A stretch of DNA of 64,000 nt. Origin: a candidate division WOR-3 bacterium (lineage in GTDB: Bacteria; Hydrothermota; Tepidihabitantia; Tepidihabitantales; CAIPLT01). The notes below the pieces were generated by a model. It did no database searches. It saw only the letters and a list, made by a program, of their open reading frames with translations, and had not been told where the DNA came from. Location of the stretch: contig CBFGJZ010000006.1 in assembly GCA_965649215.1 (NCBI GenBank), positions 3,108-67,107 on the forward strand. Reading direction: 5' to 3'. Made by a program: the position numbers and the translations under genes. Numbering within the stretch: position 1 is the stretch's first letter; every line of letters starts with the position of its first letter. Positions 17,514 to 64,000 of the stretch are shown here, piece after piece.

Positions 17514-17562
17514 AATTGTGACTTAAAAGTTGACAGAAAGAAATTTTTTAATATACTACATT

Positions 17563-18411: not shown

Positions 18412-18413
18412 CT

Positions 18414-43502: not shown

Positions 43503-43508
43503 TTTCTT

Positions 43509-43940: not shown

Positions 43941-43962
43941 TTTAAATTATTAGACTCAATAT

Positions 43963-44784: not shown

Positions 44785-44804
44785 TTTTGTTTTCCAATTA
44801 TAAA

Positions 44805-46373: not shown

Positions 46374-46389
46374 AATTCTTCCCCCCAAT

Positions 46390-46643: not shown

Positions 46644-46910
46644 CTAAACAATTCTTTCCAATTTTTCAATGAGCAAACCGATACGACGATTTATTTGATC
46701 ACTTTCATTCTCTTGAGCAGTTAAAAAATCATCAACTAAATTTATACATGATACAATTGCAGTTTTTGCTAAAGAACCTTGTGGATATTGTGTATTTATC
46801 ATTTTCATTTTTTCATCAACAATTTTTCCAATTTTATAAATATAATCACCGTTACGATCGGTTTTTATTTTGTATTCACTACCAAAAACATTTAAACTGT
46901 AAGTTTTCAT
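46644..46910 (-). CDS. zapA: Cell-division protein ZapA
   Basis: 88 aa, ZapA family pattern (…V.I.G..Y.I……L…A..VD……). Confidence 0.6.
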   Translation of the reverse strand: MKTYSLNVFGSEYKIKTDRNGDYIYKIGKIVDEKMKMINTQYPQGSLAKTAIVSCINLVDDFLTAQENESDQINRRIGLLIEKLERIV

Positions 46911-46933
46911 ACAACTCCCTACTAAAATATATC

Positions 46934-47122
46934 TTATAACATTTTAGATAAATTGTCAAGCATAATATTAATTTTTTCAATTAATTGGTTATCGCGATGT
47001 TTCAAGGACTCAAGGATATTTTTCAGACATCTGTTCTCTTCTTGTAAAACATTAATCAGATTTATTGCTTTATCAATTTTATCTTCTAAGTATCTTAAAT
47101 TAGCATCAACTTTTTCGTTCAT
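46934..47122 (-). CDS. Small coiled-coil protein, ZapB-like (cell-division associated)
   Basis: 62 aa, continuous heptad coiled coil, immediately upstream of zapA. Confidence 0.45.
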   Translation of the reverse strand: MNEKVDANLRYLEDKIDKAINLINVLQEENRCLKNILESLKHRDNQLIEKINIMLDNLSKML

Positions 47123-47161
47123 AAAATATAATTTACGACTTTTTTGAATTTTTCTTCAAAT

Positions 47162-49453
47162 TTAACTTCTAATTTTAATATTGAATTTGTCTTTTAAATA
47201 CTTAATAAGATATTCACAAATTCTATCAACTTCCATTTGATTTAAAGTTTTTTCATTCGATTGGAGTGTTATTCTAATCCCTAAATTCCTTGTTCCATTC
47301 GGTAAAGATGGTCCTTGAAAATAATCAAAAACTTCAATATTTTTTAGTAAATCACCAATTATGTGTTTAATATTCATTTTTAATTCTTGTACGGAATGCT
47401 CTTCTTTTATTAAGAAAGCAAAATCACGCGTAATTGCCGGAAATCGAGAAAGTTCACAATAGTAAAAATTAGCGGGTATTAGTTTTAATAATTCATTTAG
47501 GTTGTAACTTAATACATAAATATTTGTATTCAGATCAAATTTTTGTAAAATTGTTCTTTTTATTTCACCTAAAAAACCAATGCTATTACCTTTATATTTC
47601 AAACTTAGTGAATTCCCTGTCAAAAAATTGATATTTTCTTTAATATATTCTATATCGTTAAGCTTTAAATATTCAAAAAAAGAATCTGAAATTCCTTTGA
47701 TATCAAAGAAATCGTAATACACTGTTTTTATATTATCCCAGAATAATGGTGCTCTATTACCAGCAATAAGCGCTGTAAGGTTTAAACTTTCCTTAGCTTT
47801 ATCATTAACGAAAATATTGCCAATTTCAAATAATCTGATATCTATATTGCTCCGAAAGTAATTAAATTTGACGGTTTCTAATAAAGTTACTAAAAGATTT
47901 GGTCGTAATGCTGAATATCTTTCATTTAACGGATGTGGCAAATAGATGATATTTTGCTCAGTAAATAATTTTGCATTATTAGGATCGCAAAAACTAATTG
48001 TATAACATTCGTAAAAACCGAGTCCGACAAAGAAATTTTTTATTAAATGAACAATTTTATTTAACTGATCGATATGCCCAATATTTCTACAATGTAAAAC
48101 ATATTCTGAAGGAATTTTATCGTAGCCGTATAACCTTGCAATTTCTTCAATAAGATCGATATCCCTTATTAGATCAAAACGATAAGAAGGTATTTTTATA
48201 GAAAAATAATTTTTTTTCTCTTCTGATTCACAATTTAATTTATCAATAATTCGTTTAATTTGTTTTGTTCTTAAATTAGTTTTTAGTAATCGGTTTACTT
48301 TTGAGATATTAAAATTAATAGTTTTTTCATATTGTTTACTTCGGCATTCAATTTTATCTTGAATAACTATTCCGTTTCCTAAGAAAGCAATTAAATTTGT
48401 GGCTTCCTGTGATGCTCTATCTAAAATATTCGTATCAATACCCATTTCAAATCTTTGAGAAGCATCTGTCATCAATTGAATACTTTTGGCACTAATTCTA
48501 ATTGTTTGAGGATTAAAACGAGCGCATTCTAACAAGACTTTTTTTGTTTTATAAGTAATTTCAGTATCTTTTCCACCAATAATTCCAGCTAGAGCAATAG
48601 GTGACAGTTTGTCAGAAATTAATAAAACTTGCTCATTTAATAAATATTCTTTTCCATCAAGTGCGATGATTTTTTCTCCTTTTTTTGCAAATCGTACATT
48701 AATAGTACTTTCTTGAATTCTATCGAAATCGAATGCATGAAGTGGAGTACCATATTTAAGCATAATATAGTTAGTCGCGTCCACCACATTATTGATTGGT
48801 CTCAAACCAGACGCAATCAGTCTCCATTGTAAAGGAAATGGAGAATTTTGAATCTTTACATTATAAATTAAACGGGCAATATAATCAAAACATGCACTTT
48901 TATCACTAATAACTAATTGTACTTTTCTATCCAGAAAATTTATTATATTTTGGTTAATTTCAGGCTCCTTTGGTATATTTAATGATTCAGTAATTTCCTC
49001 ATAGGTAGAAAGTTCTCTCGCAATTCCTAAGATTGACAGTAAATCTCCACGGTTGGGTAATATTTCTAATTCTATAATATCGTCATCGAGATAATTTAAT
49101 ACATTAGAACCTGTTTCATATTGATTTGGTAATATATAAGGTAATGTATCTTCACTTAGACCAATTAAAGAGGGATTCAACCAGCTATTTTTTTGTGGTT
49201 TAAAAGCAATTTTGTCATTAATTCTTAAGTGATATGTGATTGTTGAAATGTTATAAGATCTCAAACCATCGAAAATAGTAACTTCATTTTTATTAATATC
49301 TTTGATTTCACAAACTACATATCCTTCTAAAATATTACCAATTCTATACCTGCTTTTTACTTCGATACCCTTTTGCGTAAACAAATTAACTATTTCTTCT
49401 GTTGTTTTTGATGTTGGAATAAATTCTTTTAACCATTTAATTGATAATTTCAT
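47162..49453 (-). CDS. pheT: Phenylalanine--tRNA ligase beta subunit
   Basis: MKLSIKWLKEF N-terminus, B3/4 and B5 regions, 763 aa. Confidence 0.85.
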   Translation of the reverse strand: MKLSIKWLKEFIPTSKTTEEIVNLFTQKGIEVKSRYRIGNILEGYVVCEIKDINKNEVTIFDGLRSYNISTITYHLRINDKIAFKPQKNSWLNPSLIGLSEDTLPYILPNQYETGSNVLNYLDDDIIELEILPNRGDLLSILGIARELSTYEEITESLNIPKEPEINQNIINFLDRKVQLVISDKSACFDYIARLIYNVKIQNSPFPLQWRLIASGLRPINNVVDATNYIMLKYGTPLHAFDFDRIQESTINVRFAKKGEKIIALDGKEYLLNEQVLLISDKLSPIALAGIIGGKDTEITYKTKKVLLECARFNPQTIRISAKSIQLMTDASQRFEMGIDTNILDRASQEATNLIAFLGNGIVIQDKIECRSKQYEKTINFNISKVNRLLKTNLRTKQIKRIIDKLNCESEEKKNYFSIKIPSYRFDLIRDIDLIEEIARLYGYDKIPSEYVLHCRNIGHIDQLNKIVHLIKNFFVGLGFYECYTISFCDPNNAKLFTEQNIIYLPHPLNERYSALRPNLLVTLLETVKFNYFRSNIDIRLFEIGNIFVNDKAKESLNLTALIAGNRAPLFWDNIKTVYYDFFDIKGISDSFFEYLKLNDIEYIKENINFLTGNSLSLKYKGNSIGFLGEIKRTILQKFDLNTNIYVLSYNLNELLKLIPANFYYCELSRFPAITRDFAFLIKEEHSVQELKMNIKHIIGDLLKNIEVFDYFQGPSLPNGTRNLGIRITLQSNEKTLNQMEVDRICEYLIKYLKDKFNIKIRS

Positions 49454-49509: not shown

Positions 49510-50004
49510 TTATTCTTCTGTTTGCAAAATAATTAATTTTTGATTTTTTTCAACAGTTTGGCCTATTTTTGTTAATATTTCTAAAACTTTACCATTTATA
49601 GGGCTTTTGATTTCATTTTGCATTTTCATTGCTTCTAAGATCAGTAATTGACTATTTTTACTTACTAAATCACCAACTTTTATAGGTAATTTTATTACTA
49701 ATCCTGACATTGGTGAAAAAACCGTAAAAATTTTTGGATTCTCTTTAAGAGTAATATTTTCAATTTTATCTTGATTTATTAAAACAGTTATTGGTTTTTC
49801 AAAAATACTGATTTGATATGAATTTTTTAACTTTCCTATTTTAACACTATATTTTTTGTCATTAATTATAATTGCATTTAATTCCCCATTATTATTAAAC
49901 TCAGGCATGATATCAAATGATTCATTATTTATTGATGCGCGATATCGTTTATTTGATTCCATAATCACTATATTATATTCTTTATTATCAACAGTTATTT
50001 TCAT
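49510..50004 (-). CDS. Biotin carboxyl-carrier (biotinyl-domain) protein
   Basis: C-terminal biotinylation motif EAMKMQNEI. Confidence 0.75.
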   Translation of the reverse strand: MKITVDNKEYNIVIMESNKRYRASINNESFDIMPEFNNNGELNAIIINDKKYSVKIGKLKNSYQISIFEKPITVLINQDKIENITLKENPKIFTVFSPMSGLVIKLPIKVGDLVSKNSQLLILEAMKMQNEIKSPINGKVLEILTKIGQTVEKNQKLIILQTEE

Positions 50005-50048
50005 AAGAGTTATAATTTACACTATAAATTTTAATATTTGCCTATTTA

Positions 50049-51584
50049 TTAATGAAGCCTTTCTTGCCGAGCCTGAATTTTCCATTTCGATGTGTATGAT
50101 GAATTTAATCTAATACTTTTAGGTAATTTATGATTTTCCTCAAGATAATTATATAATGCTATAGTTATCGCAGCTATTTTATTAAAATCATTACTTTCTT
50201 GGTTATAAGTATTTCTTTCTGTTTCGATGTTCTCTTCTACAATTTCACCTTTTAAAAATTTAATTGCTATTTGAGGAAATAATGTATAAGTCATTAAATC
50301 TTCTTCTTCATGTCCTCTTCGTAGGAGATGTAAAGTTTCTACCTCTTGTTTTTTTACAGATAATTCCGGTTTTAATAAGTCAGCGGGTCGACAATCTATT
50401 GGTTTTTCATTACCAATGATTATTTTTAATATGTCTTTTTTAATTGTTGCCGGAGGTCTGCCATATAAACCCAAACAATAATCTTTAACTTCTTTACTAA
50501 TTTGTGAATATCGTTTACCTGATAATACATTCAATACGGCTTGAATACCTACAATTTGACTTGTTGGAGTAACTAAAGGTGGATATCCTAAATCTTCTCT
50601 TACTCTTGGTGTTTCCGCTAATACTTCTTGGTATTTATCTAGCGCATTTTGTTCTTTTAATTGTGCATGTAAATTTGAAAGCATTCCTCCCGGAATTTGA
50701 TGAACTGCTACTGATGCATCAGTCATTTCCGCAATTGGACTAATATATTTTGAATATTTCTTCTTCATGTCTAAAAAATAATAACCAACATTGATAATCT
50801 TTTTTATGTCGAGTTTCGTATCATAAGGACTATCTTGAAGACTCACGACAATATTTTCTAATGAGGGTTGCGAACTACCACCACTAAAAACTGATACTGC
50901 AGTATCAACAATGTCCACTCCCGCTTGAATGGCAGAATAATAACTTATCAATCCCATTCCACTGGTACAATGAGTGTGTAAATTAATTGGTACTTTTATA
51001 ATTTGTTTTAAAGCTTTCACTAATTCATAAGCTATGTGTGGTGAAATCAAACCAGCCATATCCTTTATACAGATATAATCACAACCCATCAATTCTAATT
51101 GATGACCCATTTCAACAAATTTTTCAATAGTGTGAACTGGACTTGTAGTATAACAAATCGTTCCTTGTACTTCGCTACCAAGATCTTTAGCGGTTTTAAT
51201 TGCTTTTTCCATATTCCGAATATCATTTAAAGCATCAAAAATTCTAAAAATATCAATCCCATGTTTTTTAGCTAACTTTATGAAATTTTCAACGACATCA
51301 TCAGCATAATGTCGATAACCCACAAGATTTTGGCCTCTGAGTAACATTAATAATTTTGTATTAGGTAAGTGTTCCCTTAATTTATCTAATCGAAACCAAG
51401 GATCTTCTGCTAAATAACGAATACAGACATCAAAAGTTGCGCCGCCCCAAACTTCCATTGCAAAAAATCCAATTTTATCCATTTGGTCACATATTGGTAT
51501 CATATCAGAAATTCTCATCCGGGTAGCCATCAATGATTGATGCGCATCACGAAAAGTAGTATCAATAATCTTTACGGTATTCAT
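50049..51584 (-). CDS. Oxaloacetate decarboxylase alpha / pyruvate carboxylase subunit B-type carboxyltransferase (5S) without fused biotin domain
   Basis: TIM-barrel carboxyltransferase N-terminus (IIDTTFRDAHQS) and conserved core; 511 aa. Confidence 0.8.
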   Translation of the reverse strand: MNTVKIIDTTFRDAHQSLMATRMRISDMIPICDQMDKIGFFAMEVWGGATFDVCIRYLAEDPWFRLDKLREHLPNTKLLMLLRGQNLVGYRHYADDVVENFIKLAKKHGIDIFRIFDALNDIRNMEKAIKTAKDLGSEVQGTICYTTSPVHTIEKFVEMGHQLELMGCDYICIKDMAGLISPHIAYELVKALKQIIKVPINLHTHCTSGMGLISYYSAIQAGVDIVDTAVSVFSGGSSQPSLENIVVSLQDSPYDTKLDIKKIINVGYYFLDMKKKYSKYISPIAEMTDASVAVHQIPGGMLSNLHAQLKEQNALDKYQEVLAETPRVREDLGYPPLVTPTSQIVGIQAVLNVLSGKRYSQISKEVKDYCLGLYGRPPATIKKDILKIIIGNEKPIDCRPADLLKPELSVKKQEVETLHLLRRGHEEEDLMTYTLFPQIAIKFLKGEIVEENIETERNTYNQESNDFNKIAAITIALYNYLEENHKLPKSIRLNSSYTSKWKIQARQERLH

Positions 51585-51604
51585 AATTTTGTAGCTGTGA
51601 TTTT

Positions 51605-53482
51605 TTAAACCATAGGTTCTACTGTAAACAAAGGTTGTCCATATTCAACTGTTTGGCCATCTTTCGCTAATATTTCAACAATTCGACATTTTTTTTCAGC
51701 TTCAATTTCATTCATAAGTTTCATTGCTTCAATAATACATAACGTTGAACCTGCTTCTATAACATCATTAATATTAACAAAAGGTGGGGCATCGGGACGA
51801 GGGCGAGAATAAAAAGTTCCCACCATTGGTGATTTAATTTGTTCTAATGTATGTTTAGAGGAAGGAGTTTGAATTTCATTGATAACATCTGACTGTGGCT
51901 GAGATGGTGTATTAATTTTAGTAATTATTTGTGGTTCATTTGATATTTGTTGAGTAGGAACAGCATAGGTTTGATTAATTTTACGAATTTTAATTTTGTG
52001 ACCAGAGCATTCCCATTCTAATTCAGCTAAATTATGTTTCGCTGCTAATTCAATTAATTCTCTTATAACCTCCATATCATCTTTATTTTCTTGTTTCATA
52101 ATATTTTTCCCCTCATCTTGTTTTATAATTTCTAGTTTTTCTGGGTTATCTCTTGTTTCAAAAAAATTTATAGCAATTTCTGGAAATAATGCAAAAGTAA
52201 TAAAATCTTCTTCTTTTTTAATATATTTTGAATTAACTTCTTTTTTTATTTTATTTAATACTGGTTCCAATAAATTTGCTGGTCGTTGAGATATAGGCCG
52301 TTCATTACCAAGAATTTTACGTCGTATTGTATCTTTTATAGGAACTGGTGGTTTCCCATATAATCCTCGTACATAATCTTTAACTTCATTAGGAATTATT
52401 TTATATCTTTCATTAGTGAGAACATTGAATACTGCTTGTACACCAACTATTTGGCTAGTCGGAGTTACTAACGGTGGATACCCTAAGTCTTTTCGTACTT
52501 TAGGAACTTCTTCTAATACTTCTCTCAGACGATGTTCTGCATTTTGCTGTTTTAATTGAACTATAAGATTCGAAACCATTCCTCCTGGTATTTGATGAAT
52601 TGTAACCATTTCATCAATAATTTTATCATATTTTATATCACGTTTATTTTTGATTTGTTCTAAATAATTTGAGACCTCTTCGATTAAATTTTTATTCAGT
52701 TGTAATGTGTATTGGGTATTATCTAACATTGCAATTAAAGTTTCAATTGCTGGTTGAGAAGTTCCGAATGATAATGGTCCATGTGCCGTATCAACAATAT
52801 CTACTCCTGCTTCAATCGCTTTTAGATAACTAGCAACTGCCATTCCACTTGATGCATGAGTATGAAGTTGTACTGGTAATCTTATGTCCTCTTTTAAACG
52901 TTTAATCAATTCAAAAGAAATATGCGGGGCAAGAATTCCCGCCATATCTTTAATACAGATACTGTCTATTCCCAGATCAAGTTGTTTTTTAGCTATCTCT
53001 AAATAATATTCTATAGTATGAATAGGACTTATCGTGTAACATAAGGTACCTTGAGCATGCTTTTTATATTTTCTTACAAACTCTATTGCCTTTTCAATAT
53101 TACGAATGTCGTTTAAAGCATCAAAGATTCGAAAAATATCTATACCGCGTTCCACACTCTTTTCAATAAATGCTTCTAATAAATCATCAGGATAGTTCCG
53201 ATAACCGACAATATTTTGGCCACGCAACAACATCTGTAATTTCGTCTTTTTTACATATTTCTTTATTAAAGATAAACGTTCCCATGGATCTTCATATAAA
53301 TATCGCAAACACACATCAAATGTAGCTCCACCCCACATTTCCAATGACCAATAACCGATCTCGTCAATTTTTGATAAAATTGGTAATATTTCTTCTGTTT
53401 TCATTCGTGTTGCCCATAATGATTGATGAGCATCACGAAAGGTTGTATCGGTAATTTTAATTTGTTTTGATTTTGCAAGCAT
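51605..53482 (-). CDS. Paralogous carboxyltransferase (OadA/PycB-type) with fused C-terminal biotinyl domain
   Basis: ITDTTFRDAHQS N-terminus; C-terminal IEAMKLMNEI biotin motif; 625 aa. Confidence 0.8.
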   Translation of the reverse strand: MLAKSKQIKITDTTFRDAHQSLWATRMKTEEILPILSKIDEIGYWSLEMWGGATFDVCLRYLYEDPWERLSLIKKYVKKTKLQMLLRGQNIVGYRNYPDDLLEAFIEKSVERGIDIFRIFDALNDIRNIEKAIEFVRKYKKHAQGTLCYTISPIHTIEYYLEIAKKQLDLGIDSICIKDMAGILAPHISFELIKRLKEDIRLPVQLHTHASSGMAVASYLKAIEAGVDIVDTAHGPLSFGTSQPAIETLIAMLDNTQYTLQLNKNLIEEVSNYLEQIKNKRDIKYDKIIDEMVTIHQIPGGMVSNLIVQLKQQNAEHRLREVLEEVPKVRKDLGYPPLVTPTSQIVGVQAVFNVLTNERYKIIPNEVKDYVRGLYGKPPVPIKDTIRRKILGNERPISQRPANLLEPVLNKIKKEVNSKYIKKEEDFITFALFPEIAINFFETRDNPEKLEIIKQDEGKNIMKQENKDDMEVIRELIELAAKHNLAELEWECSGHKIKIRKINQTYAVPTQQISNEPQIITKINTPSQPQSDVINEIQTPSSKHTLEQIKSPMVGTFYSRPRPDAPPFVNINDVIEAGSTLCIIEAMKLMNEIEAEKKCRIVEILAKDGQTVEYGQPLFTVEPMV

Positions 53483-54848
53483 AATATTTTTGTAAATTGT
53501 AAATAATTTCTTCCATTTTTAAAGCTCGAGAGCCTTTGATAAGTATTTTATCACTTTTACATGTAATGTCAACCAATTTATTAACAATATCAGAAATAGA
53601 ATCTAATAAAAAAGTGTCTTTAACTTTATTATTTAATTTTGCTTGTTCTGCTATATAATGTGCATATTGACCAAAGGTGATAATTATATCAATACCATTA
53701 GGGAAAGTTTCACCAACTTTCTTATGTAATTCTACGCTTTTCTCTCCTAATTCAAGCATATCACCTAATACAACTATTTTCTTACCTTTAGCAGAAAAAT
53801 TGGCAAATGTTTGAAGTGCCGCAATCATCGATTGCGGGTTAGCATTATATGCATCATTAAAAATTTCAATACCATTAATATCAATCTTTTGCATTCTCAT
53901 ATCTAATAATTTAAATGATTTTAAATCATCAATGATCTTCTCCCAACTAATATTAAATATTTGAGCAACACTGATTGCGGCTAATGCATTATAAATGTTA
54001 TAGCGACCAGGAAAATTCAATCTGATTTTGTATTTATTAGATAACAAAAATTCACAGCCATTTTCACCAAAATCTTTTATATCAGTGGCATAAATATCAG
54101 CTGTATTATTAATACCGTAAGTTATTTTTTTTCTGAATTGAAAGATTTCACCGATTTCCATAACTAATGGATCATCTTTATTTAAAACTGCAATCCCTCT
54201 TGATGCAATCGATTCCAACAATTCCGCCTTTTCTTTCTGAACTCCTTGACGATTAGTTAAGTATAACAAATGACTATCACCAATGTTCGTCAAAACCCCA
54301 ATATCTGGCAAGGAAATATCACATAATCGTTTAATACCACCATACTCATTCATTTCCATCTCTAAAATCAATACTTCTGTTTTTTTATCTATTTTAAGAA
54401 CAGTTAAAGGAACACCAATATTATTATTATAACTATTTGGAACCTTAACAATATTATAACGATTCTGTAATAAGTGACTTATCATTTCTTTGGTAGTAGA
54501 TTTACCATTGCTACCTGTTATGGCAATTACCTGTGGAGAAAATTTTCTACGATAATATGCTGCTATATCACCTAATGCTTTCGTTGTATCCTGAACTAAA
54601 ATTATATTAGCTAAAGTCTGACTGGTAGAAAATAATTTACTAACTATTAACGCTTTGGCACCATTTTTAATGGCATCAACACAATAATCATGACCATCTA
54701 ATCTTTGTCCTTTAATAGCAATGAAACAATCACCATCTTTTATTTTTCTCGAATCAATTTCAATATTATTAATAATATCTTGTTTTTTACCATCTATTAA
54801 TTTTCCTTCACAAGCTTTTATTATTTCTTCTATCTTTAGTTTTTCCAT
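53457..54848 (-). CDS. murF: UDP-N-acetylmuramoyl-tripeptide--D-alanyl-D-alanine ligase MurF (start ambiguous among GTG 54872, ATG 54869 and ATG 54848)
   Basis: Mur ligase P-loop (ITGSNGKSTTKEM), central and C-terminal Mur domains. Confidence 0.8.
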   Translation of the reverse strand: MEKLKIEEIIKACEGKLIDGKKQDIINNIEIDSRKIKDGDCFIAIKGQRLDGHDYCVDAIKNGAKALIVSKLFSTSQTLANIILVQDTTKALGDIAAYYRRKFSPQVIAITGSNGKSTTKEMISHLLQNRYNIVKVPNSYNNNIGVPLTVLKIDKKTEVLILEMEMNEYGGIKRLCDISLPDIGVLTNIGDSHLLYLTNRQGVQKEKAELLESIASRGIAVLNKDDPLVMEIGEIFQFRKKITYGINNTADIYATDIKDFGENGCEFLLSNKYKIRLNFPGRYNIYNALAAISVAQIFNISWEKIIDDLKSFKLLDMRMQKIDINGIEIFNDAYNANPQSMIAALQTFANFSAKGKKIVVLGDMLELGEKSVELHKKVGETFPNGIDIIITFGQYAHYIAEQAKLNNKVKDTFLLDSISDIVNKLVDITCKSDKILIKGSRALKMEEIIYNLQKYYACKIKTN

Positions 54849-54849
54849 T

Positions 54850-55878
54850 TTAGTAGATAAACATAGCATCACCGAAACTATAAAAACGAAATTTATTTTT
54901 TATTGCATAATCATAAGCTTTGAAAATATATTCTTTCGTTGCAAAAGCTGATACTAGTAATAATAAAGTGGATTTCGGAAGATGAAAATTAGTAATTATC
55001 GCATCAACTATCTTAAATTGATAAGGAGGATATATAAATAATTTAGTATTAGTATGTGCTGGTTTAACTTGCCATACACCATCTCTTTGAATATTTGCTT
55101 GTGATTCTAATGCTCTGACAACAGTTGTACCAACTGCAATTACTCTTCTTTTATCTTTTTTAGCCATATTAATTGCTTGACTGGCTTGTACACTAATTTC
55201 AAATTCTTCTGAATACATCTTATGTTCTTCGACAATTTCAGTTAAAATTGGTCGAAAAGTACCCAAGCTCGCATGTAAAGTAATCATTTCAACAAATATT
55301 CCTTTTGCTTTGATTTTTTCAAGTAGTTTTTCTGTAAAATGTAATCCTGCTGTAGGAGATGCGATCGCACCAGGTGTCTGCGCATAGACGGTTTGATAGC
55401 GATCTAAATCAGGTATTTTTGTTTTAATATACGGAGGTAAAGCAATTTCACCCTGCTCGTTCATGATCTCAAAAGCATTTTTTCCGAAAAACTCAATAAT
55501 TCTTAGACCTGTTTCTTTATACTCGACAACTTTTGCAAAAGCGCCATTAAATTTTATGGTAGATCCCACTTTTAGTTTTTTAGCTGGTTTTGAAAGAGCT
55601 TCCCATGTGTTTTTTTTTATACTCTTTATTAAAAGTATTTCAATTTCTTGATTAGTATCTTCTAATTTACCTAAAATACGCGCAGGAATAACCTTTGTTT
55701 GATTTAGAACTAATAAATCACCAGGAATCAAATAATTAACAATATTTTCAAATATAGTTTCTAAAATCTCGCCGCTTTTTCTATTAAGTAATAACAATCT
55801 TGATTCGTCACGCTTTTCTAAAGGATATTGAGCAATTAATTCTTTAGGAAGAAAATAATCAAAGTCTTTAACTAACAT
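54850..55878 (-). CDS. queA: S-adenosylmethionine:tRNA ribosyltransferase-isomerase QueA
   Basis: N-terminal FDYFLPKELIAQYP motif, 342 aa. Confidence 0.85.
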   Translation of the reverse strand: MLVKDFDYFLPKELIAQYPLEKRDESRLLLLNRKSGEILETIFENIVNYLIPGDLLVLNQTKVIPARILGKLEDTNQEIEILLIKSIKKNTWEALSKPAKKLKVGSTIKFNGAFAKVVEYKETGLRIIEFFGKNAFEIMNEQGEIALPPYIKTKIPDLDRYQTVYAQTPGAIASPTAGLHFTEKLLEKIKAKGIFVEMITLHASLGTFRPILTEIVEEHKMYSEEFEISVQASQAINMAKKDKRRVIAVGTTVVRALESQANIQRDGVWQVKPAHTNTKLFIYPPYQFKIVDAIITNFHLPKSTLLLLVSAFATKEYIFKAYDYAIKNKFRFYSFGDAMFIY

Positions 55879-56737
55879 TATAAATAGAATAAAATTAAAA
55901 AACTAGATAGTCAAGTATATTCTATAATCGCTTTATAATTTATTTATTTTTTATTCAATTCTTAATGATTTACCGTACCCAAAACCATAATTGCCATCAT
56001 CAACATCTTGGGTGCTCCATAATAAATCATTGCGATAACTTGGGGAAAACGTATAACTAGATCATGATAAAAAAGTATTTAAATAATTTATTTTTAGATC
56101 CAACACTATAATTTCTTAATCTCTTTCTCCCCTAATAACAAAAAAATATTTATCTGACGTATTGATACCTTTTACAAATCTGTGCTCTTTAGTGTAAATT
56201 ATTATTTTATTTATTTTTCTTGCCAACCATTTTTAAAATTTATAAATCGGATATATTTCTTTTTGATTAGTTAGTAAGCATATTTTTTGGAAAAAACTGA
56301 ATTGTTATCATAAAGAAATATATTTGAATAGAGTAATATTTTATTTCATTGATAAATTCTGTTTGTATAAATCTGGATAATAAATCTTTGACAATTTATT
56401 TGTTTTGTAATTATAAAAAATTGTAAGATTATCAATATTAAAATCATAATCGGTCATCATGTCATCATATTCATAACAAGTATTGATTAAACAATAACCC
56501 TCGTTGTCGCCATTTATAGTAATTATAACTGTCACAATTAATTGCTATATTATAATAAAAGACCTATCTTCTATTACAATTTCTTCAGTAGGTGTAATTA
56601 TTACTTTTTGTGATTTTCTGCAAGTGGCATTAAGTTTTATTTATAGTAATTAAAGCCTTTATTTTAATTTAATTATAATTTTATTATTAATAAATACTAA
56701 TTGACTTTAAGATATCTCTTAAATATAATAATGAATT

Positions 56738-57397
56738 GTGAATACTGCAATTATTCTTGCGGCCGGGCAAGGTCAACGTTTTGGACGACTAAAGCAATTT
56801 ATTATCCTTAATGGAAAACCAGTTGTATATTATAGTTTATATAAATTTAGCCGTTCCTCCTGTGTTGATAATATTATTGTAGTAACTCTCAAATCAAAAA
56901 TATCTTATTTGAACAAATTAATAAAAAAATATAATTTCCCTAAAATATCAAATATTGTCTTTGGTGGTAAAACACGTCAAGACTCTGTGGCTAATGCTTT
57001 AAAACTAATATTATCAAAAGGCTATGTTGCTATTCACGACGCAGCGCGGCCTAACTTTCCCGAAGGATTTATTCAAGTCGGTTTTAAATTAGTAAAAAAG
57101 TTTAAAGCAATTATTCCAGTTATACCAATTACTGATACCATTAAAATGATTAATCATAATCAAGTGATTCAAACAATTGATCGTAAGTCATTATATTATG
57201 TTCAAACACCTCAGTTTTTTGAACTCGATTTAATAAAAAAAGCCTATGATGTTGCGGCACAAAAAAAGTACAATACAACAGACGATGCATCTTTAATTGA
57301 AAAATTAGGTTTTAAAGTATATACATTTAAAGGTACCAAATCTAATATTAAATTAACAGATTATGAAGATTTTATTTTATTAAAAAAAATTATATGA
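56738..57397 (+). CDS. ispD: 2-C-methyl-D-erythritol 4-phosphate cytidylyltransferase
   Basis: AIILAAGQGQRF P-loop-like motif, 219 aa. Confidence 0.85.
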   Translation: MNTAIILAAGQGQRFGRLKQFIILNGKPVVYYSLYKFSRSSCVDNIIVVTLKSKISYLNKLIKKYNFPKISNIVFGGKTRQDSVANALKLILSKGYVAIHDAARPNFPEGFIQVGFKLVKKFKAIIPVIPITDTIKMINHNQVIQTIDRKSLYYVQTPQFFELDLIKKAYDVAAQKKYNTTDDASLIEKLGFKVYTFKGTKSNIKLTDYEDFILLKKII

Positions 57398-58536
57398 AAA
57401 AAATAGCAATTGTGGGTTCAACGGGTTCGATTGGAAAAGCATCAATAAAAGTAATTCGACATTTGAAATCAAAATTCTTAATTTATGCTTTAGCAGCAAA
57501 AGAAAATTATCGTATATTAGCTGAACAAATATTAGCTCTTAAGCCCAAAATAATTGTTGTTGGTGATAGTCAAATAAGAGAAAAATTATATAAATTAATT
57601 TCTCGTCATACCACAAACATTCAAATTTTAACAGGTGAAGATGGTTTAAATACAATTGCCACTGATCATAAGATTGATATAATTGTTTTTGCAATGACAG
57701 GCACTTCTGGAATTATACCCTTAATTAATGCTATAAAGCATCGTAAGCAAATTGCTTTGGCAACAAAAGAGCTTTTAGTAAGTTTTGGAAAAATAATAAT
57801 GCATTATGCACAGCAATATAATATTAAAATAGTACCCATCGATTCTGAACTGGTTGGTCTTCATCAATGTTTTACTGGACATAGTATTAACCAAGTTAAA
57901 AGAATAATAATCACTGCTTCTGGTGGTCCTTTTTACCAAAGAACAAATCTAAAAAATATCTCAATAAATGAAGCACTCAGGCATCCAATTTGGCAAATGG
58001 GGAAAAAAAATACTATTGATTCTGCCACCTTAGCAAATAAAGGGTTGGAAATAATTGAGGCTGCTCATCTTTTTTCAATTCCCTCAGAAAAAATTCAAGT
58101 CGTTATTCATCCTCAAAGTATTATTCATGCACTAATTGAGTTAAATGATAATTCTGTTATTGCTCAATTGGCTATGCCGGACATGAAAATTTGCATTCAA
58201 TATGCTTTGACTTATCCTGAGCGACTTCCATCGATGATAAAACCAATTGATTTTTCAAATTTACAATTAACATTCTTAAAACCTAATTTTAAAAAATTTC
58301 CTGCATTACAATTAGCGTATCAAGCATTAAGAATAAACGGTATTGCACCCTGTGTTTATAATTCTGCTAATGAAGTTGCCGTAAACTATTTTTTAGAGGG
58401 AAAGATCGACTTTACAATGATACCGAAAATAATCAAAAAAACACTACAAAACATGCCAATTATTAAAAATCCATCATTAACGCAATTATTAAAATATCAA
58501 TCATTAAGTAAAAAATATGCACAGAGTTTAATATGA
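57394..58536 (+). CDS. dxr: 1-deoxy-D-xylulose 5-phosphate reductoisomerase
   Basis: N-terminal NADPH motif (IAIVGSTGSIG), 380 aa, 4-nt overlap with ispD. Confidence 0.85.
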   Translation: MKKIAIVGSTGSIGKASIKVIRHLKSKFLIYALAAKENYRILAEQILALKPKIIVVGDSQIREKLYKLISRHTTNIQILTGEDGLNTIATDHKIDIIVFAMTGTSGIIPLINAIKHRKQIALATKELLVSFGKIIMHYAQQYNIKIVPIDSELVGLHQCFTGHSINQVKRIIITASGGPFYQRTNLKNISINEALRHPIWQMGKKNTIDSATLANKGLEIIEAAHLFSIPSEKIQVVIHPQSIIHALIELNDNSVIAQLAMPDMKICIQYALTYPERLPSMIKPIDFSNLQLTFLKPNFKKFPALQLAYQALRINGIAPCVYNSANEVAVNYFLEGKIDFTMIPKIIKKTLQNMPIIKNPSLTQLLKYQSLSKKYAQSLI

Positions 58537-59789
58537 TATCATCAATTTTTTTAGTGGCTATCGTAATTGGATCGTTAGTAATTATCCATGAATTTGGACA
58601 TTTGTTTTCAGCAAAATTATTAAAAATACCAGTCGAAATTTTTTCAGTTGGTTTTGGTCCTGTTATAGTTAAAAGACGTTTTGGCTCAACTGAATATCGC
58701 TTATCAATCATCCCATTAGGAGGTTATATTAAGCTAACCGGTGATGAACCTGATGCGAATATAGGTTTTAATACTGTACCATTTATTAAAAAGGCATTAG
58801 TTATAATTTCTGGACCAATCGCTAATTTTATCTTAGGAATTATTTTAACTATTATCCTTTATAGCAGTTTTGGTGTTTCTATAATCGAACCCAAAATCAT
58901 CATCGATGATGCAAACCTTACTACTTATTTACAAACCGGCGATGAAATTATCAAAATCAATGCTGATACTATAAAAAGCTGGGACGATGTTGAAAAACAT
59001 TATCAATCTAACATTGGCCAAAAAGTTATATTGACATTAAAACGAAAAGAACAATTATTAAGAATTGAATATTTAATTAATAGTGAAAGCATTCCGTTCC
59101 GCCCCCTGGTAAAACCAATTATTGAAAGAGTAAAAAAATCGAGTCCTGCGGATAAAATTGGAATTAAAAAAGATGATTTAATTCTACAAATTGATACGGT
59201 ACCAATATATGAATGGAGTCAATTTGTAAATCTTATTCAAGATATTAATACAAAAAAGCATTATCTAAAATGGCAAAGAGCAAATCGTATTTTTGAAGAT
59301 AGCATTACTGTTTTAATCACCCAAGATGACTTAAGTAAGACGAAAATCGGAACAATCGGAGTCTGGGTCAAATTACCAGAAAAAAAATTGCCAATTTTAC
59401 AATCAATTCTAACGGCTACTAAACGTTCAGTTTATGTTGCGATTCAAACAGTTGTAATATTATATAAAATCATTATTGGCGAAATCTCCAAATCAGCAAT
59501 TGGAGGCCCAGTTATGGTTGGTAAACTTACTTATGAAGGTGCTCAATGGGGTATTAAATATCTTTTAGGTTTGTGGGCAATCCTCTCGATTAATTTATGT
59601 GTCATAAATCTCTTTCCAATACCAATTTTAGATGGCGGACGAGTTTTACTCTTTGCAATTGAAAGTAGCATAAGGAAAAAATTTACAAAAAAGCAATGGG
59701 AATTTGCATTCTATATCGGTTATGCTTTAATTGCCATCTTGCTGATTTTTGCTTTATCGAATGATTTAACTCGTTTAATAAAAAAATAA
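58533..59789 (+). CDS. rseP: RIP (site-2) zinc metalloprotease RseP with PDZ domain
   Basis: HEFGHL zinc motif in the first TM helix, PDZ region, C-terminal LDGG motif; 4-nt overlap with dxr. Confidence 0.8.
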   Translation: MISSIFLVAIVIGSLVIIHEFGHLFSAKLLKIPVEIFSVGFGPVIVKRRFGSTEYRLSIIPLGGYIKLTGDEPDANIGFNTVPFIKKALVIISGPIANFILGIILTIILYSSFGVSIIEPKIIIDDANLTTYLQTGDEIIKINADTIKSWDDVEKHYQSNIGQKVILTLKRKEQLLRIEYLINSESIPFRPLVKPIIERVKKSSPADKIGIKKDDLILQIDTVPIYEWSQFVNLIQDINTKKHYLKWQRANRIFEDSITVLITQDDLSKTKIGTIGVWVKLPEKKLPILQSILTATKRSVYVAIQTVVILYKIIIGEISKSAIGGPVMVGKLTYEGAQWGIKYLLGLWAILSINLCVINLFPIPILDGGRVLLFAIESSIRKKFTKKQWEFAFYIGYALIAILLIFALSNDLTRLIKK

Positions 59790-60147
59790 ATATTTATGCC
59801 AATCGTTTTATATTCACCATGTTGTAAAGTTTTTCGACTTTAATATACTAGATCACCATACCTATTATTAATTATTGAAATCATAAATTCAAAGATGTGA
59901 ACTAATTAGTTAATTATTTTGTTGTGTTTTTTTATATAATATATTCATAATCAATAACTAACAATAAAAATCTGTATTTTAGGGGTATAGTGCTCTACTT
60001 TAAATTTTGATATTAATAGGATTGAATGATGTAAATTAGTTTTGTAGATTTAGTATTTATCAGGAAATTTAGATATCAAAGTTCTTCTAAAGATATTTAT
60101 TATTTATGATCTATGATTCAGTTTTATAATTAAATAATTTATCTCTG

Positions 60148-60360
60148 TTAATTTGTCTCTTTAGATTTTGATTTATTTATCATACTTACTAAAACTCCAA
60201 TTACAAATCCTATAGCTGTAGTGATTATTAGTAATAATATTAAGGGCATTTGTATTGAGATAAAAAGAATATGCGCTTGGACAGGTGCTCGATTCTGAAT
60301 GATTACAATGACAAGAATAATGACTAATATAATTATACTAATCAACTTCTTAATGTTCAT
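60148..60360 (-). CDS. LapA/YciS (DUF1049)-like small inner-membrane protein
   Basis: 70 aa, two TM segments with an interhelical QNR…V motif. Confidence 0.45.
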   Translation of the reverse strand: MNIKKLISIIILVIILVIVIIQNRAPVQAHILFISIQMPLILLLIITTAIGFVIGVLVSMINKSKSKETN

Positions 60361-60515
60361 ATTATCCTATCTCCTTTTTTAGAATAAATAATCTCAATAA
60401 ATGTTAATTTAATAATCAATAATGTCAATATTAAATATATCTAAATGCAGTGAATTATAATGTTAACATTACCTATTGACAAAAGTATTTTTTTTGTTAA
60501 AGTTTTATTCAAATA

Positions 60516-61556
60516 ATGGCTATTTTATATTTAAGTCGATATAACTTAAATAAGTGGTTAGAAAAAATTGCCGTTAAATATTTAGTATACATACCCACAT
60601 ATCAAGAAAATAAACTACATTATAAAAAAATAACAACTATTAATGAATTGCCGGAAGAACAATTATTCAACAAGGCATTACAACAAATTCGGGTAACTGA
60701 ATCATTAAAAGGCTTTTTCTTTAGTCCTAAAGTCTTAGTCGCTGGTTTAAACAAAACGGTTCAAATAGATATTAATATTGATAAAAGTCCACGTATTATT
60801 TTTGGTGCTAAAAATTGTGATTTACATCCACTACAGGTTCATCAGAAAATGTATCTAGAAAATGAATATTGTGACAATTTATATAAATCAGAATTAGAAC
60901 GAACATTAATCATTGCTGCTGACTGTCCTTATCCCCAAGAAACTTGCTTTTGTAATTTAGTTGGATTAAATCCGTATCCTGAAAAAGGAGCAGATATTAT
61001 CATTAGTGTTCTTGAAACAGGTTATCTTTTTGAAACTATAACTGTCAAAGGTAATGAACTTATTCATAGTACCAATCACTTCTTTCAAGAAGCATCCCTG
61101 GAAGACATTAAACAACGAGATTTATTGCGAGAACAAGCAATAAAAAAGTTGCATAGTACAAATGATTTAGTACTCAAAAAAGAAATACCTCTTTTAATTG
61201 AACAAAAACATGATGAAAAATTTTGGCAACATCATGCTGATAAGTGTGTTGAATGTTTTGGTTGTTTAATGGTGTGTCCAACCTGTTTTTGTTTTCTTTT
61301 ATATGATACGCCTATTAACGATGAAGGATTTAAAAGATATAAAATTTGGGATGCCTGTTATTTTAGTGCTTATGCTCGAGTTGGTGGAGGCATGAATACA
61401 CGCCCTGAATTTTGGAAACGTTTTCGCAATCGATTCCATTGTAAATTTATGAATTTTAAAAATGACTATAATTTTTTTGCTTGTTCCGGATGTAATCGAT
61501 GTTATTTAGTATGTATGGGTAAAATTGATATCAGAAACATACTTAAATCACTATGA
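60516..61556 (+). CDS. AsrA/HydB-like 4Fe-4S cluster electron-transfer subunit
   Basis: 346 aa; Cys clusters (CPYPQETCFC; CVECFGCLMVCPTCFC; CSGCNRCYLVC) typical of anaerobic sulfite reductase subunit A / sulfhydrogenase beta. Confidence 0.6.
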   Translation: MAILYLSRYNLNKWLEKIAVKYLVYIPTYQENKLHYKKITTINELPEEQLFNKALQQIRVTESLKGFFFSPKVLVAGLNKTVQIDINIDKSPRIIFGAKNCDLHPLQVHQKMYLENEYCDNLYKSELERTLIIAADCPYPQETCFCNLVGLNPYPEKGADIIISVLETGYLFETITVKGNELIHSTNHFFQEASLEDIKQRDLLREQAIKKLHSTNDLVLKKEIPLLIEQKHDEKFWQHHADKCVECFGCLMVCPTCFCFLLYDTPINDEGFKRYKIWDACYFSAYARVGGGMNTRPEFWKRFRNRFHCKFMNFKNDYNFFACSGCNRCYLVCMGKIDIRNILKSL

Positions 61557-62371
61557 TGAATCCATTTCAACCATTTGCAGTAAAAATAACTAAAATTATT
61601 GATGAAACCCCAACAATAAAAACATTTGTTTTAGATCTATTAGGGAATAAATTTTCATTTGATGCGGGTCAATTTATTGAATTAACTGTTCCTGGTGTTG
61701 GTGAAGCTCCTTTTACTCCTTCATCTTCACCATATATTAAAGATACCTTAGAAATGACAATTATGAAAGTCGGACGTGTTACTTCTGCACTTTTTGAAAA
61801 GAAAGTCGGTGATATTTTAGCAATTCGAGGTCCTTTTGGAAAACGATATCCTATTGAAAAGTTCGAAAAGAAAGAAGTTTTAATTCTTGGTGGTGGTGTT
61901 GGATTAGCGCCGTTACGCTCTCTATTTTTAGCATTAGCAGAAAATATTAAAAAATATGGAAAAATTTATATAAAATACGGGGCTAGAACTCCTCAAGATA
62001 TTGTATATAAATATCAAATTCCAGAATGGCAAACATGGAAAGGTGTAGATGTTGATTTATCCGTTGATGTTGGCAACAATGCATGGAAGGGTAAAATTGG
62101 AGTTGTAACTATACTACTAGAAAACTCTTTACCAAATCCACAAGAGATGGTCGCAGTTGTCTGTGGCCCCCCAATTATGATGAAATTTGGAACTATTAAA
62201 CTTCTTGAAAAAGGATTTAAGGGAAGTAATATTTATCTTTCTATGGAAAAGAATATGTCATGCGGAATCGGTCAGTGCGGACATTGTCGCTGTGGTAGAT
62301 ATTTCGTTTGTAAAGATGGTCCAGTTTTAACTTGGGACCAAATTAAAGACATTGAAGATCCTTTCCTATGA
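61553..62371 (+). CDS. AsrB/HydG/PyrK-like FAD/NAD(P)-binding 2Fe-2S oxidoreductase subunit
   Basis: 272 aa; ferredoxin-reductase-type fold motifs; C-terminal C-x4-C-x2-C…C (CGIGQCGHCRC…C); 4-nt overlap with the upstream gene. Confidence 0.65.
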   Translation: MMNPFQPFAVKITKIIDETPTIKTFVLDLLGNKFSFDAGQFIELTVPGVGEAPFTPSSSPYIKDTLEMTIMKVGRVTSALFEKKVGDILAIRGPFGKRYPIEKFEKKEVLILGGGVGLAPLRSLFLALAENIKKYGKIYIKYGARTPQDIVYKYQIPEWQTWKGVDVDLSVDVGNNAWKGKIGVVTILLENSLPNPQEMVAVVCGPPIMMKFGTIKLLEKGFKGSNIYLSMEKNMSCGIGQCGHCRCGRYFVCKDGPVLTWDQIKDIEDPFL

Positions 62372-64000
62372 ACCCAAAATATAAAATTTTGACAACTATT
62401 TGCCCGTTCTGTAAATATGGGTGTGAACTAAGTATTCAAGAAATGAATCAAGGAAATTATAAATTGCATCAAATAGAATATTTAAAAAGTTCAGGAATAA
62501 ATCAAGGACGACTTTGCCCTCGTGGCAATTCTGCTAAAATACTGTTGAGTCATCCCAAACGATTAACTTATCCTCTATTTAATAATAAAATTTTAAAATG
62601 GAGCGATATCATTCAAGATATACAAAAATTGATCCAAAACAGTTCTCCAGAGAACATAGCAATTACATATGATTGCAATAATACACTTGAAGAATTTTCT
62701 GATATCTACAATTTTGCGCATGCCCTCAAAACTGAAAACATAAGCTGCGTTTATTTTCATCCCGAACAATTTTTTAATTATGCGGTTAGCGAAATCAAAC
62801 AAATTGATATAAAAGACTTAAATAATAGCAAATTTTTACTAGTAATTGGTGATATTTTTGCTAAATCACCAGTCATTTCTAAACATATTTTAGATATTAA
62901 ATATAGCGATCGAAATAACAAAATATTTTATTTTGATGTGATTAAATCAAAATTAGCAGGTTTTGCAGATAAATTTATTTGGCTAAATCCAAATACAGAA
63001 CCGTTGGTTTTATTAGCCCTAATTTTAGAATCAAGTCGAGCAGCAAAGAATATTATAAGCAATAAGTACTACAATGAATTAACAAAGTTATTACCAACAA
63101 TCTATGAATTTCTTAATGTCAAACAAAAAGATATTCAAGATATTTGTCAAACTTTATTGAACAATCCCCATAGTCTAGTGCTTGTTGCCACAGACTTCGG
63201 TAAGACTAAAGACCCTTTATTGCTATCTCTCTTAAGTCAATTGTTTGCATCAATAACTCCATCTAAAAAATATTGTAGTTTAGCTTTAGCATCGATTCCT
63301 TTATCGAACATTAAATTTAGCACTATCTTAAATAAGATTAGAGATAATAAGATTAAAATACTAATTCATTTTGGTGAAGAATTTCCATATTATTATCCAC
63401 AATTACATCAATTTTTAATTAATTTAGATGTATTTATTTACACTTCAATGCTACGCAGTAACAGAGATCTATTAGCTAAACGAAATTACATTTTACCTGT
63501 TACTTCAACAATAGAAAAACAAGGGACTATAAATACTTTATGGTCAAAAACAACTATAAAACCAGTTATAGCTCCGATTGATGGCGCAAAATCCGTATCA
63601 GAAATAATTACTTTGCTTCATCCACATTTAAACCGAAATGCAAAAGTCAATTTAAATTATAAATCTCCTATTGATATAGAACGATTAATAAATCGTTGTA
63701 TCGAATATTGTAAGAATTTCTCTATAAATACTAATTCTGATGACTTTCATTTAATTGGTGAAGAATCAGCATATAATTATCGTGGGTATTTTAACGATTG
63801 CTCAAAGGAAGTTAAAATTAATCCTATCACAGCTAAAAAAATTAATATTAAAAATAACGACAGAATCCTTCTTATTTCTAACAATTGTCAAAAAGTATTT
63901 ATTACAAAAATTGTTAACTACTTGCCTTTAGATACAGTCTCAGTATCAACCGATTTACCCGATAATCGTTTACTATTTCCGATACAATTTGATAATTTAA
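62368..64000 (+). CDS. Divergent molybdopterin (Mo/W-bisPGD) oxidoreductase catalytic subunit, 3'-truncated by the window end; cytoplasmic (no Tat signal)
   Basis: N-terminal CxxCxxxC…C 4Fe-4S Mo-bisPGD motif (CPFCKYGCEL…GRLCPRG). Open frame with no in-frame stop to 64000, per hand translation. ATGA overlap with the upstream gene. C-terminal molybdopterin-dinucleotide-binding-like segment. Confidence 0.5.
   Translation, partial: MNPKYKILTTICPFCKYGCELSIQEMNQGNYKLHQIEYLKSSGINQGRLCPRGNSAKILLSHPKRLTYPLFNNKILKWSDIIQDIQKLIQNSSPENIAITYDCNNTLEEFSDIYNFAHALKTENISCVYFHPEQFFNYAVSEIKQIDIKDLNNSKFLLVIGDIFAKSPVISKHILDIKYSDRNNKIFYFDVIKSKLAGFADKFIWLNPNTEPLVLLALILESSRAAKNIISNKYYNELTKLLPTIYEFLNVKQKDIQDICQTLLNNPHSLVLVATDFGKTKDPLLLSLLSQLFASITPSKKYCSLALASIPLSNIKFSTILNKIRDNKIKILIHFGEEFPYYYPQLHQFLINLDVFIYTSMLRSNRDLLAKRNYILPVTSTIEKQGTINTLWSKTTIKPVIAPIDGAKSVSEIITLLHPHLNRNAKVNLNYKSPIDIERLINRCIEYCKNFSINTNSDDFHLIGEESAYNYRGYFNDCSKEVKINPITAKKINIKNNDRILLISNNCQKVFITKIVNYLPLDTVSVSTDLPDNRLLFPIQFDNL

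Follow-up and report, generated by a model that had tools for sequence, protein, structure and literature searches.

What do three overlapping genes do together when the first two encode a flavoprotein and iron-sulfur electron-transfer pair and the third a divergent relative of molybdenum-dependent formate dehydrogenases? The question is raised by the 3' end of a 64,000-nucleotide stretch of DNA from a candidate division WOR-3 bacterium (contig CBFGJZ010000006.1), here referred to as the window. The original prediction for these genes, made from the sequence alone, was a soluble molybdoenzyme linked to NAD(P)H, with formate, polysulfide/thiosulfate or another oxyanion as possible substrates. 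Our analysis points elsewhere: the trio probably forms the cytoplasmic module through which NAD(P)H is coupled to a group 4 [NiFe]-hydrogenase of the Mbh type with an Mrp linkage, and a dead relic of an FdhF-type protein would act as its adaptor.

The operon headed by the trio

The three open reading frames (ORFs) lie on the plus strand, and both junctions, between genes 1 and 2 and between genes 2 and 3, are 4-nt ATGA overlaps, as had been described (Table 1). An exact-sequence look-up of gene 2 led to a 12.4-kb contig of a WOR-3 metagenome-assembled genome (MAG; GCA_039801405.1, locus L001), on which 3372 of the 3375 bases in the overlap are identical to the window (99.9 %). Gene 3 is intact and 562 codons long on this contig, of which the window removes just 18; it is therefore truncated by the window end, as anticipated, and is not a pseudogene created by a frameshift further on. 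Since intact orthologues are present in >40 genomes and the ratio of nonsynonymous to synonymous changes (pN/pS) is 0.16-0.28, the trio consists of real genes and not of chance ORFs.

On L001 the trio forms the 5' end of a 16-gene operon, in which the downstream genes follow with short gaps or overlaps. The fourth gene encodes a 156-aa HycB-like ferredoxin with four cluster motifs (Fer4_11). It is followed by NuoH/MbhM-like (NADHdh), NuoB/MbhJ-like (Oxidored_q6) and NuoC/MbhK-like (Complex1_30kDa) genes, and by a gene for a 394-aa large subunit related to NuoD (NiFeSe_Hases/Complex1_49kDa). Next come an MrpD/MbhH-like gene (Proton_antipo_M), MbhD/E, MnhB, MnhC/NuoK (Oxidored_q2), MnhE (MNHE), MnhF (MrpF) and MnhG, and the last gene encodes a 205-aa HycF-like protein with two [4Fe-4S] motifs.

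The best match of the large subunit in the PDB is MbhL of Pyrococcus furiosus (2.9e-85, 290 bits), followed by HycE of Escherichia coli (265 bits). In the L001 protein the motifs RICGICSNSH and DPCYCCTER supply all four NiFe cysteines; the patterns RICGICS[ND]SH and DPCYCCT[ED]R are found in 30 of 30 complete WOR-3 copies, and both motifs recur in the copies from deeper clades (L090-L093), with single substitutions in L093. The presence of all four cysteines excludes a non-hydrogenase complex of the Mbx/MBS, Ehr or Nuo type. Respiratory complex I was likewise rejected, there being no NuoE or NuoF and all four NiFe cysteines being kept in the NuoD homologue. Among the other subunits, MbhM and MbhH are the best PDB matches of the membrane proteins, the ferredoxin is closest to HycB3 of the hydrogen-dependent CO2 reductase (HDCR) and to HycB of the E. 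coli formate hydrogenlyase (FHL), and the terminal iron-sulfur subunit matches HycF/HyfH better than MbhN. Judged by these affinities, the machine is an Mbh/Mrp membrane arm with a peripheral chain of the FHL type.

A scan of one genome per species yielded full-length relatives of gene 3 in about 42 genomes; where these carry a label, it is WOR-3 or Stahlbacteria, and in one case Latescibacterota. Within contig reach, the order AsrA-like, AsrB-like, MopB-like, HycB-like, NuoH, NuoB, NuoC, large subunit, MrpD is the same in every one of these loci. A profile search over 1.84 billion representatives returned 124 proteins at E <= 1e-30, many of them 450-620 aa in size and likewise devoid of the cysteine ligand, and single-linkage clustering of 150 profile matches at 150 bits placed all but one sequence in one component. 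Look-ups recovered the same operon for five of these proteins, namely L089 and L090 from deeper clades, L091 (Margulisbacteria), L092 (Poribacteria) and L093. Wherever a locus extends far enough to show it, the trio is thus linked to hydrogenase genes, and the idea that it stands by itself was not upheld: a HycB-like gene and a complete set of genes for an Mbh/Mrp-type membrane [NiFe]-hydrogenase always follow. At the non-WOR-3 loci L042-L088, L054 excepted, the MopB-like gene was found alone or with a Fer4_11 gene, and AsrAB and hydrogenase genes were not found. L054 (1690-6411, a Planctomycetota MAG) holds a gene for a 678-aa MopB-like protein with a degenerate active-site region, VDHGAGVYCNNS, followed by AsrA-like, AsrB-like and hydrogenase maturation endopeptidase-like genes, with no Mbh genes on the short contig.

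Several variations in the operon were observed. In a deeper clade, a gene for a TPR-repeat protein lies between the HycB-like and NuoH-like genes (L089:12344-13126 and L090:12418-13038); the L089 protein has an N-terminal zinc-ribbon-like CxxC...CxxC. At L006:5923-8305 and L012:15043-17300 the MrpD-like gene is directly followed by the HycF-like gene, and the small Mrp subunits (the MbhA-G equivalents) are absent there. Beyond DPCxxCxxR, every large subunit continues for about 30 aa at its C-terminus, an extension for which a maturation protease of the HycI type would be needed. A gene for such a protease closes the operon at L091:19436-19852, L092:21639- and L093:11569-12030, and none was seen at the WOR-3 operon ends. 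In several WOR-3 lineages, the last hydrogenase gene is directly followed by a gene for a 199-aa molybdenum enzyme of the SUOX fold (Oxidored_molyb, 3.3e-37; HCVTGWS), at L001:11507-11746 (4 nt downstream), L002:20096-20695 and also at L009, L012 and L041; it may be co-transcribed with the hydrogenase operon.

The MopB-fold protein encoded by gene 3

The product of gene 3 scores above the Pfam cut-off for Molybdop_Fe4S4 (33.5 versus 22.7 bits) and remains below threshold for Molybdopterin (19.4 versus 24) and Molydop_binding (17.3 versus 26.8). An AlphaFold2 model built from 17 homologues (predicted local distance difference test, pLDDT, 87.5; predicted template modelling score, pTM, 0.89) has the four-domain MopB fold, with template modelling (TM) scores of 0.76-0.80 to FdhH, FDH1 and Nap in Foldseek. 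The structural matches include FdhF in the FHL complex and ForCE1, whereas NuoG chains ranked lower, at 23 and 40. As modelled, the fold of enzymes with molybdenum bis(pyranopterin guanine dinucleotide) (Mo-bisPGD) is real and of the FdhF type. Four N-terminal cysteines in a CxxCxxxC...C arrangement, C12, C15, C19 and C50, are the sole invariant cysteines in the family alignments, and no twin-arginine motif was found at the N-terminus, MNPKYKILTTICPFC. Fold, cluster motif and lack of a Tat signal thus agree with what had been predicted for this gene.

The predicted molybdoenzyme activity did not fare as well. In HMMER alignments to the F420-dependent formate dehydrogenase 9t1s_L and to FdhA 7bkb_D, the selenocysteine (Sec) or cysteine that ligates the metal pairs with Phe130. 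The surrounding motif reads Y-[FLI]-[EH]-P-E in 33 of 34 distinct sequences, the one exception being YCEPE, so that no conserved Cys, Sec, Ser or Asp was found at the Mo-ligand position among the 34 family members. A Sec-containing enzyme was ruled out by the absence of an in-frame TGA from gene 3. The His next to the ligand position is mostly Glu in the family, and is kept as His131 in the window protein. A segment of about 40 residues with the catalytic Arg (Arg333; LRGQQNVQG... in a canonical relative) is deleted throughout the family, and the Lys adjoining the [4Fe-4S] site (FS0) is replaced by Arg.

To quantify the loss of cofactor-associated and catalytic positions, which include TxxR besides those above, we used 69 alignment columns that are invariant in nine canonical FdhF-type relatives. 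Only 22 of the 69 are kept by at least 80 % of the family, and individual members keep 22-32, as compared to 67 in a hold-out canonical protein and 38-63 in NuoG/FdsA-like fusions that also lack the cysteine. Moreover, versions of 460-500 aa, labelled Margulisbacteria, Omnitrophota and Latescibacterota, have no Molydop_binding domain (domain IV), and a bis-molybdopterin guanine dinucleotide (bis-MGD) enzyme is for this reason hard to reconcile with the family.

Gene 3 has also diverged rapidly. Its orthologues are 25-47 % identical, compared with 71-86 % for the large subunit. No other peripheral or catalytic subunit has diverged to this extent, which is equalled only by the MrpD-like membrane subunit. 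Its pN/pS values are 2-4 times higher than those of the large subunit (0.05-0.08) and well below 1, indicating purifying selection. Fast divergence under purifying selection is the pattern that would be expected of a structural, electron-wiring subunit. The metal-binding active site of gene 3 is lost, and the only role left to the protein is most likely that of an iron-sulfur adaptor between the NAD(P)H module and the hydrogenase.

Table 1. Features at the 3' end of the window (positions in the window)
Feature	Position	Strand	Remark
hydB/asrA-like poly-[4Fe-4S] subunit, operon gene 1	60516..61556	+	346 aa
hydG/asrB-like FAD / NAD(P)H / [2Fe-2S] subunit, gene 2	61553..62371	+	272 aa
FdhF-type MopB-fold protein, gene 3	62368..64000	+	544 codons in window, no stop
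Codons C12, C15, C19 ... C50, retained N-terminal [4Fe-4S] (FS0) site	62401..62517	+	invariant alignment columns
Former active-site motif Y129-F130-H131-P132-E133	62752..62766	+	F130 where formate dehydrogenases have the Sec/Cys Mo ligand
Promoter-like site, TTGACA-16-TAAAGT with TG	60476..60503	+	weak evidence only

A candidate NAD(P)H-coupled hydrogenase and its rivals

The first two genes encode the parts that would connect the complex to a nucleotide. Gene 1 is a poly-ferredoxin (Fer4_22, 1.7e-23) with ShyB (164 bits), HydB (139) and AsrA (110) as its top NCBIfam models, all far under the equivalog cut-offs, and its best PDB match is the beta subunit of sulfhydrogenase I, also called soluble hydrogenase I (SHI), from P. 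furiosus (9nez_B, 8.7e-38). Gene 2 has intact FAD_binding_6, NAD_binding_1 and DHODB_Fe-S_bind (PyrK-type 2Fe-2S) domains, scores below cut-off to its top NCBIfam models AsrB, HydG and ShyC, and is best matched in the PDB by the gamma subunit of the same enzyme (9nez_C, 9.2e-53). Orthologues of gene 1 (38-62 % identity) hold the same position in all related loci, and those of gene 2 are 58-86 % identical across the WOR-3 loci. The earlier description of the pair as AsrA/AsrB- or sulfhydrogenase beta/gamma-type proteins is thereby supported, with SHI beta and gamma as their best solved relatives. In SHI, electrons pass between NADP(H) and the hydrogenase dimer by way of these two subunits.

Neither of the named enzymes is encoded here as such. 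An AsrABC sulfite reductase was rejected on the scores to TIGR02910 (110 versus a cut-off of 323) and TIGR02911 (218 versus 288.6), and because the third gene has the MopB fold and is not AsrC, as was also recognized in the original prediction. A group 3b sulfhydrogenase (HydABDG or ShyABCD) misses the equivalog cut-offs, and the neighbouring hydrogenase is a group 4 enzyme of the Mbh type. Nor did the trio prove orthologous to a characterised NAD-dependent formate dehydrogenase, an option that had been considered for it.

We propose that the products of the operon assemble into a single complex, in which NAD(P)H or NAD(P)+ would react at the FAD of the HydG/AsrB-like subunit. Electrons would then travel through the [2Fe-2S] cluster of this subunit, the [4Fe-4S] clusters of the HydB/AsrA-like subunit and the single N-terminal [4Fe-4S] cluster (FS0) of the MopB-fold protein. 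The latter, a putative FdhF-type descendant without a Mo/W-bisPGD site, would be both scaffold and wire, much like the C-terminal domain of NuoG in complex I. From here, the path would lead to the HycB-like four-cluster ferredoxin, then to the HycF-like protein with its two clusters and, through the MbhJ-like small subunit, to the [NiFe] site, and the membrane arm (MbhM/MbhH/Mrp) would couple turnover to the movement of Na+ or H+. Such a complex would work as a reversible NAD(P)H:H+ oxidoreductase that is tied to an ion gradient. In a fermenter, it could use NAD(P)H to evolve H2, with the gradient or a low level of H2 assisting the reaction; alternatively, it could oxidise H2 to form NAD(P)H and pump ions at the same time. 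The oxidation of H2 with NAD(P)+ spans about the same energy as the transfer from ferredoxin to H+ in Mbh, and could for this reason drive the pumping of ions.

A few observations weigh against this proposal. The formation of H2 from NAD(P)H is endergonic at standard state, about 90 mV uphill, so that under physiological conditions the reaction may run either way. The usual electron donors of group 4 hydrogenases are ferredoxin, formate or CO (HydDB table, PMC5037454), and ferredoxin may also enter here at the HycF- or HycB-like subunits. The conserved Y-[FL]-E-P-E at the former active site would, from the sequence alone, be compatible with an unconventional metal or pterin site, and the SUOX-fold gene next to the operon means that these WOR-3 organisms probably make the molybdenum cofactor.

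One alternative is that the operon encodes an odd formate hydrogenlyase of the Thermococcus Fdh-Mfh-Mnh kind, in which gene 3 binds Mo/W-bisPGD with a non-canonical ligation and acts on formate or another small substrate, the HydBG-like pair being a side branch to NAD(P)+. The fold of gene 3 and its closest sequence relatives are indeed of the FdhF/FdhA type, its HycB- and HycF-like partners correspond to those in FHL, the old active site retains a conserved motif with His131 kept in the window protein, and a molybdenum-enzyme gene adjoins the operon in some lineages. This alternative is nevertheless unlikely given the absence of a conserved Cys, Sec, Ser or Asp ligand, the deletion of the Arg segment and the replacement of His by Glu in most members. 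It is further opposed by the loss of 37-47 of the 69 canonical positions, which is more than in the Cys-less NuoG/FdsA-like proteins, and by entire clades that keep the operon without having the C-terminal MGD-capping domain. The missing ligand, the Arg deletion and the lost positions equally leave the earlier suggestion of formate or an oxyanion as substrate without support.

The electron acceptor could also be sulfur. A ferredoxin-driven Mbh-like hydrogenase, in which the HydBG-MopB-HycB part is a sulfhydrogenase-like branch to sulfur, polysulfide or another acceptor, would connect H2 or ferredoxin with sulfur in place of NAD(P). The SHI beta and gamma homologues are the closest solved relatives of the pair, SHI is established to reduce sulfur in vitro (cited in PMC12542636), and elemental sulfur is used by a WOR-3 strain in culture that has neither dsr nor psr genes (PMC12542636). 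We consider such a branch quite unlikely, as the FAD and NAD(P) domains, which ordinarily serve nucleotide oxidoreduction, are complete in the gamma-like subunit, and the operon contains no sulfur-handling genes and no sequence feature specific for sulfur reduction that we could find. There is least to be said for the original prediction of a free-standing, soluble NAD(P)H-linked Mo-bisPGD oxidoreductase of three proteins. Despite the translational coupling within the trio and the presence of the MopB fold with its iron-sulfur motif, it is highly improbable in view of the hydrogenase genes that come next in every locus of sufficient length and the missing residues of the molybdenum site; the electron-transfer pair and the MopB fold of that prediction stand, while its soluble molybdoenzyme does not.

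The NAD(P)H-coupled hydrogenase that we favour resembles several known systems in part. With P. furiosus SHI (9nez, group 3b) and Salmonella AsrAB, it shares the cofactor domains of genes 1 and 2, but the pair adjoins neither group 3 alpha and delta subunits nor AsrC, and the NCBIfam equivalog cut-offs are widely missed. Among solved complexes, P. furiosus Mbh (6cfw, HydDB 4d) is the closest for the large subunit and for the MbhM and MbhH proteins, and has, as here, the full set of small Mrp-type membrane subunits and the four NiFe cysteines. It differs in receiving ferredoxin electrons at MbhN and in having no HydBG-, MopB- or HycB-like protein, and the last iron-sulfur subunit is here more similar to HycF than to MbhN. 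The formate hydrogenlyases (E. coli FHL-1, 7z0s/7z0t; Thermococcus Fdh-Mfh-Mnh; groups 4a and 4b) combine an FdhF-type MopB protein, a HycB/HycF-like chain and a group 4 [NiFe] enzyme in the same manner, and the Mrp linkage is as in group 4b. In contrast to FHL, the FdhF homologue is here devoid of the Sec or Cys, the Arg segment and most cofactor-associated positions, and an NAD(P)H-type flavoprotein pair is added.

As in NuoG (Nqo3) of complex I, a MopB domain of formate dehydrogenase ancestry and without Mo cofactor would have an NADH-oxidising flavoprotein module on one side and a membrane machine of the Nuo/Mbh type on the other. Gene 3 has no specific sequence affinity to NuoG, however, and lacks its N-terminal 2Fe-2S/4Fe-4S ferredoxin domains; there is no NuoEF, and the acceptor is a NiFe centre and not a quinone pocket. 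The likeness is a parallel and not orthology. That these complexes represent a class of ion-translocating NAD(P)H:H+ oxidoreductases, with a new hydrogenase coupling and a dead formate dehydrogenase relic as adaptor, and an independent living parallel to complex I, is a more tentative idea, which we place slightly short of an even chance.

The closest precedent is an "enigmatic" Mrp-Mbh-type group 4 hydrogenase region in Saganbacteria RX5A (Matheus Carnevali et al. 2019, Nat Commun 10:463; PMC6349859; main text and Supplementary Note 5/Fig. S3e). By its description, the region has the same gene set: asrA-like and asrB-like genes, an unclassifiable molybdopterin oxidoreductase with a single cluster, a cooF/HycB-like ferredoxin, NuoB/C/D/H/I homologues with a NiFe large subunit, and Mrp antiporter-like subunits. 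In that paper, the asrA/asrB oxidoreductase module was suggested to be NuoEF-like, no electron donor was assigned, and the MopB protein was regarded as potentially catalytic (PMC6349859). Our case differs in the phylum, which is WOR-3, and in that the Mo-ligand and catalytic residues are absent family-wide. The architecture is hence already known from Saganbacteria, and the window operon is a further case of a kind of hydrogenase operon that has not been characterised. New here are its presence throughout the WOR-3 phylum, the evidence for loss of the molybdenum site from the MopB protein and the identification of SHI beta and gamma as the closest solved relatives of the flavoprotein pair.

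For WOR-3 itself, our search of the literature for Mrp-linked or membrane-bound hydrogenases, and for NuoG-like or formate dehydrogenase-like Mbh complexes, returned nothing specific. A survey from 2025 with annotation in the KEGG style lists a hydABDG "sulfhydrogenase" and an F420-type formate dehydrogenase, and there is no mention of Mbh or Mrp in it (PMC12542636). A study of Lost City noted a divergent formate dehydrogenase-like sequence in a WOR-3 MAG for which phylogenetic placement failed (PMC9469722), and the operon is not described by Nobu et al. 2020 or in the paper on the sy37 isolate.

Surrounding genes and implications

The putative promoter (Table 1) is located in a 155-bp AT-rich gap 5' of gene 1, which contains 18 matches to the promoter consensus as compared to 10.8 +/- 3.5 in shuffled sequences, only a modest excess. 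In the relative with 47 % identity (L002:1-7638), a block of Lon, Hsp20, YmdB, RNase Y and PheT genes is found immediately 5' of the operon. The same block is present in the window (41142-49453) about 11 kb from the operon, the distance being taken up by inserted housekeeping genes for OadA-like, MurF, QueA, IspD, Dxr and RseP proteins. No moaA, mobA, fdhD or hyp genes were seen in a scan of 38 of the 40 ORFs of at least 130 aa at 86-53482 or by eye at 53457-60360, which says little for a window of 64 kb.

The window begins with a gene for a type I restriction enzyme R subunit (86-3235; HSDR_N, SWI2_SNF2, T1RH-like_C), and its G+C content is 35-40 % in the first 25 kb and 26-32 % in the last 18 kb. 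An NfnAB/SudAB-like pair at 17530-19811, consisting of a 293-aa PyrK-type 2Fe-2S protein and a 465-aa Fer4_20/Pyr_redox_2 protein, gives the genome a second module linked to NAD(P)H and ferredoxin, and is followed by a glutamate dehydrogenase gene (20244-21584). The window also encodes an ADP-forming acetyl-CoA synthetase. Two tandem paralogues of the oxaloacetate decarboxylase alpha/pyruvate carboxylase B-type carboxyltransferase (HMGL-like and PYC_OADA) are encoded together with a separate biotin-carrier protein at 49510-53482, and may be part of a Na+-pumping decarboxylase.

If our reading of the operon is correct, NAD(P)H and H2 would be connected directly, by a membrane-coupled route, in many anaerobes that have not been cultured, and models of their fermentation and hydrogenotrophy would change. 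The lineages concerned are WOR-3, Margulisbacteria and Poribacteria, in which operon loci were found, Omnitrophota and Latescibacterota, which have relatives of the MopB-like protein, and, from the literature, Saganbacteria. Coupling to NAD(P)H is not covered by the current group 4 subgroups of HydDB, which comprise only formate-, CO- and ferredoxin-coupled enzymes (PMC5037454), and KEGG-style pipelines may label the operon genes as "sulfhydrogenase", "F420/NAD formate dehydrogenase" or "NADH-quinone oxidoreductase". In evolutionary terms, the family would offer a testable natural case of a formate dehydrogenase subunit degrading into an iron-sulfur adaptor, the process that has been assumed for NuoG. 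On the more tentative idea given above, it would also parallel the step in which complex I gained NuoG and the NADH module from a formate-hydrogenlyase-like ancestor.

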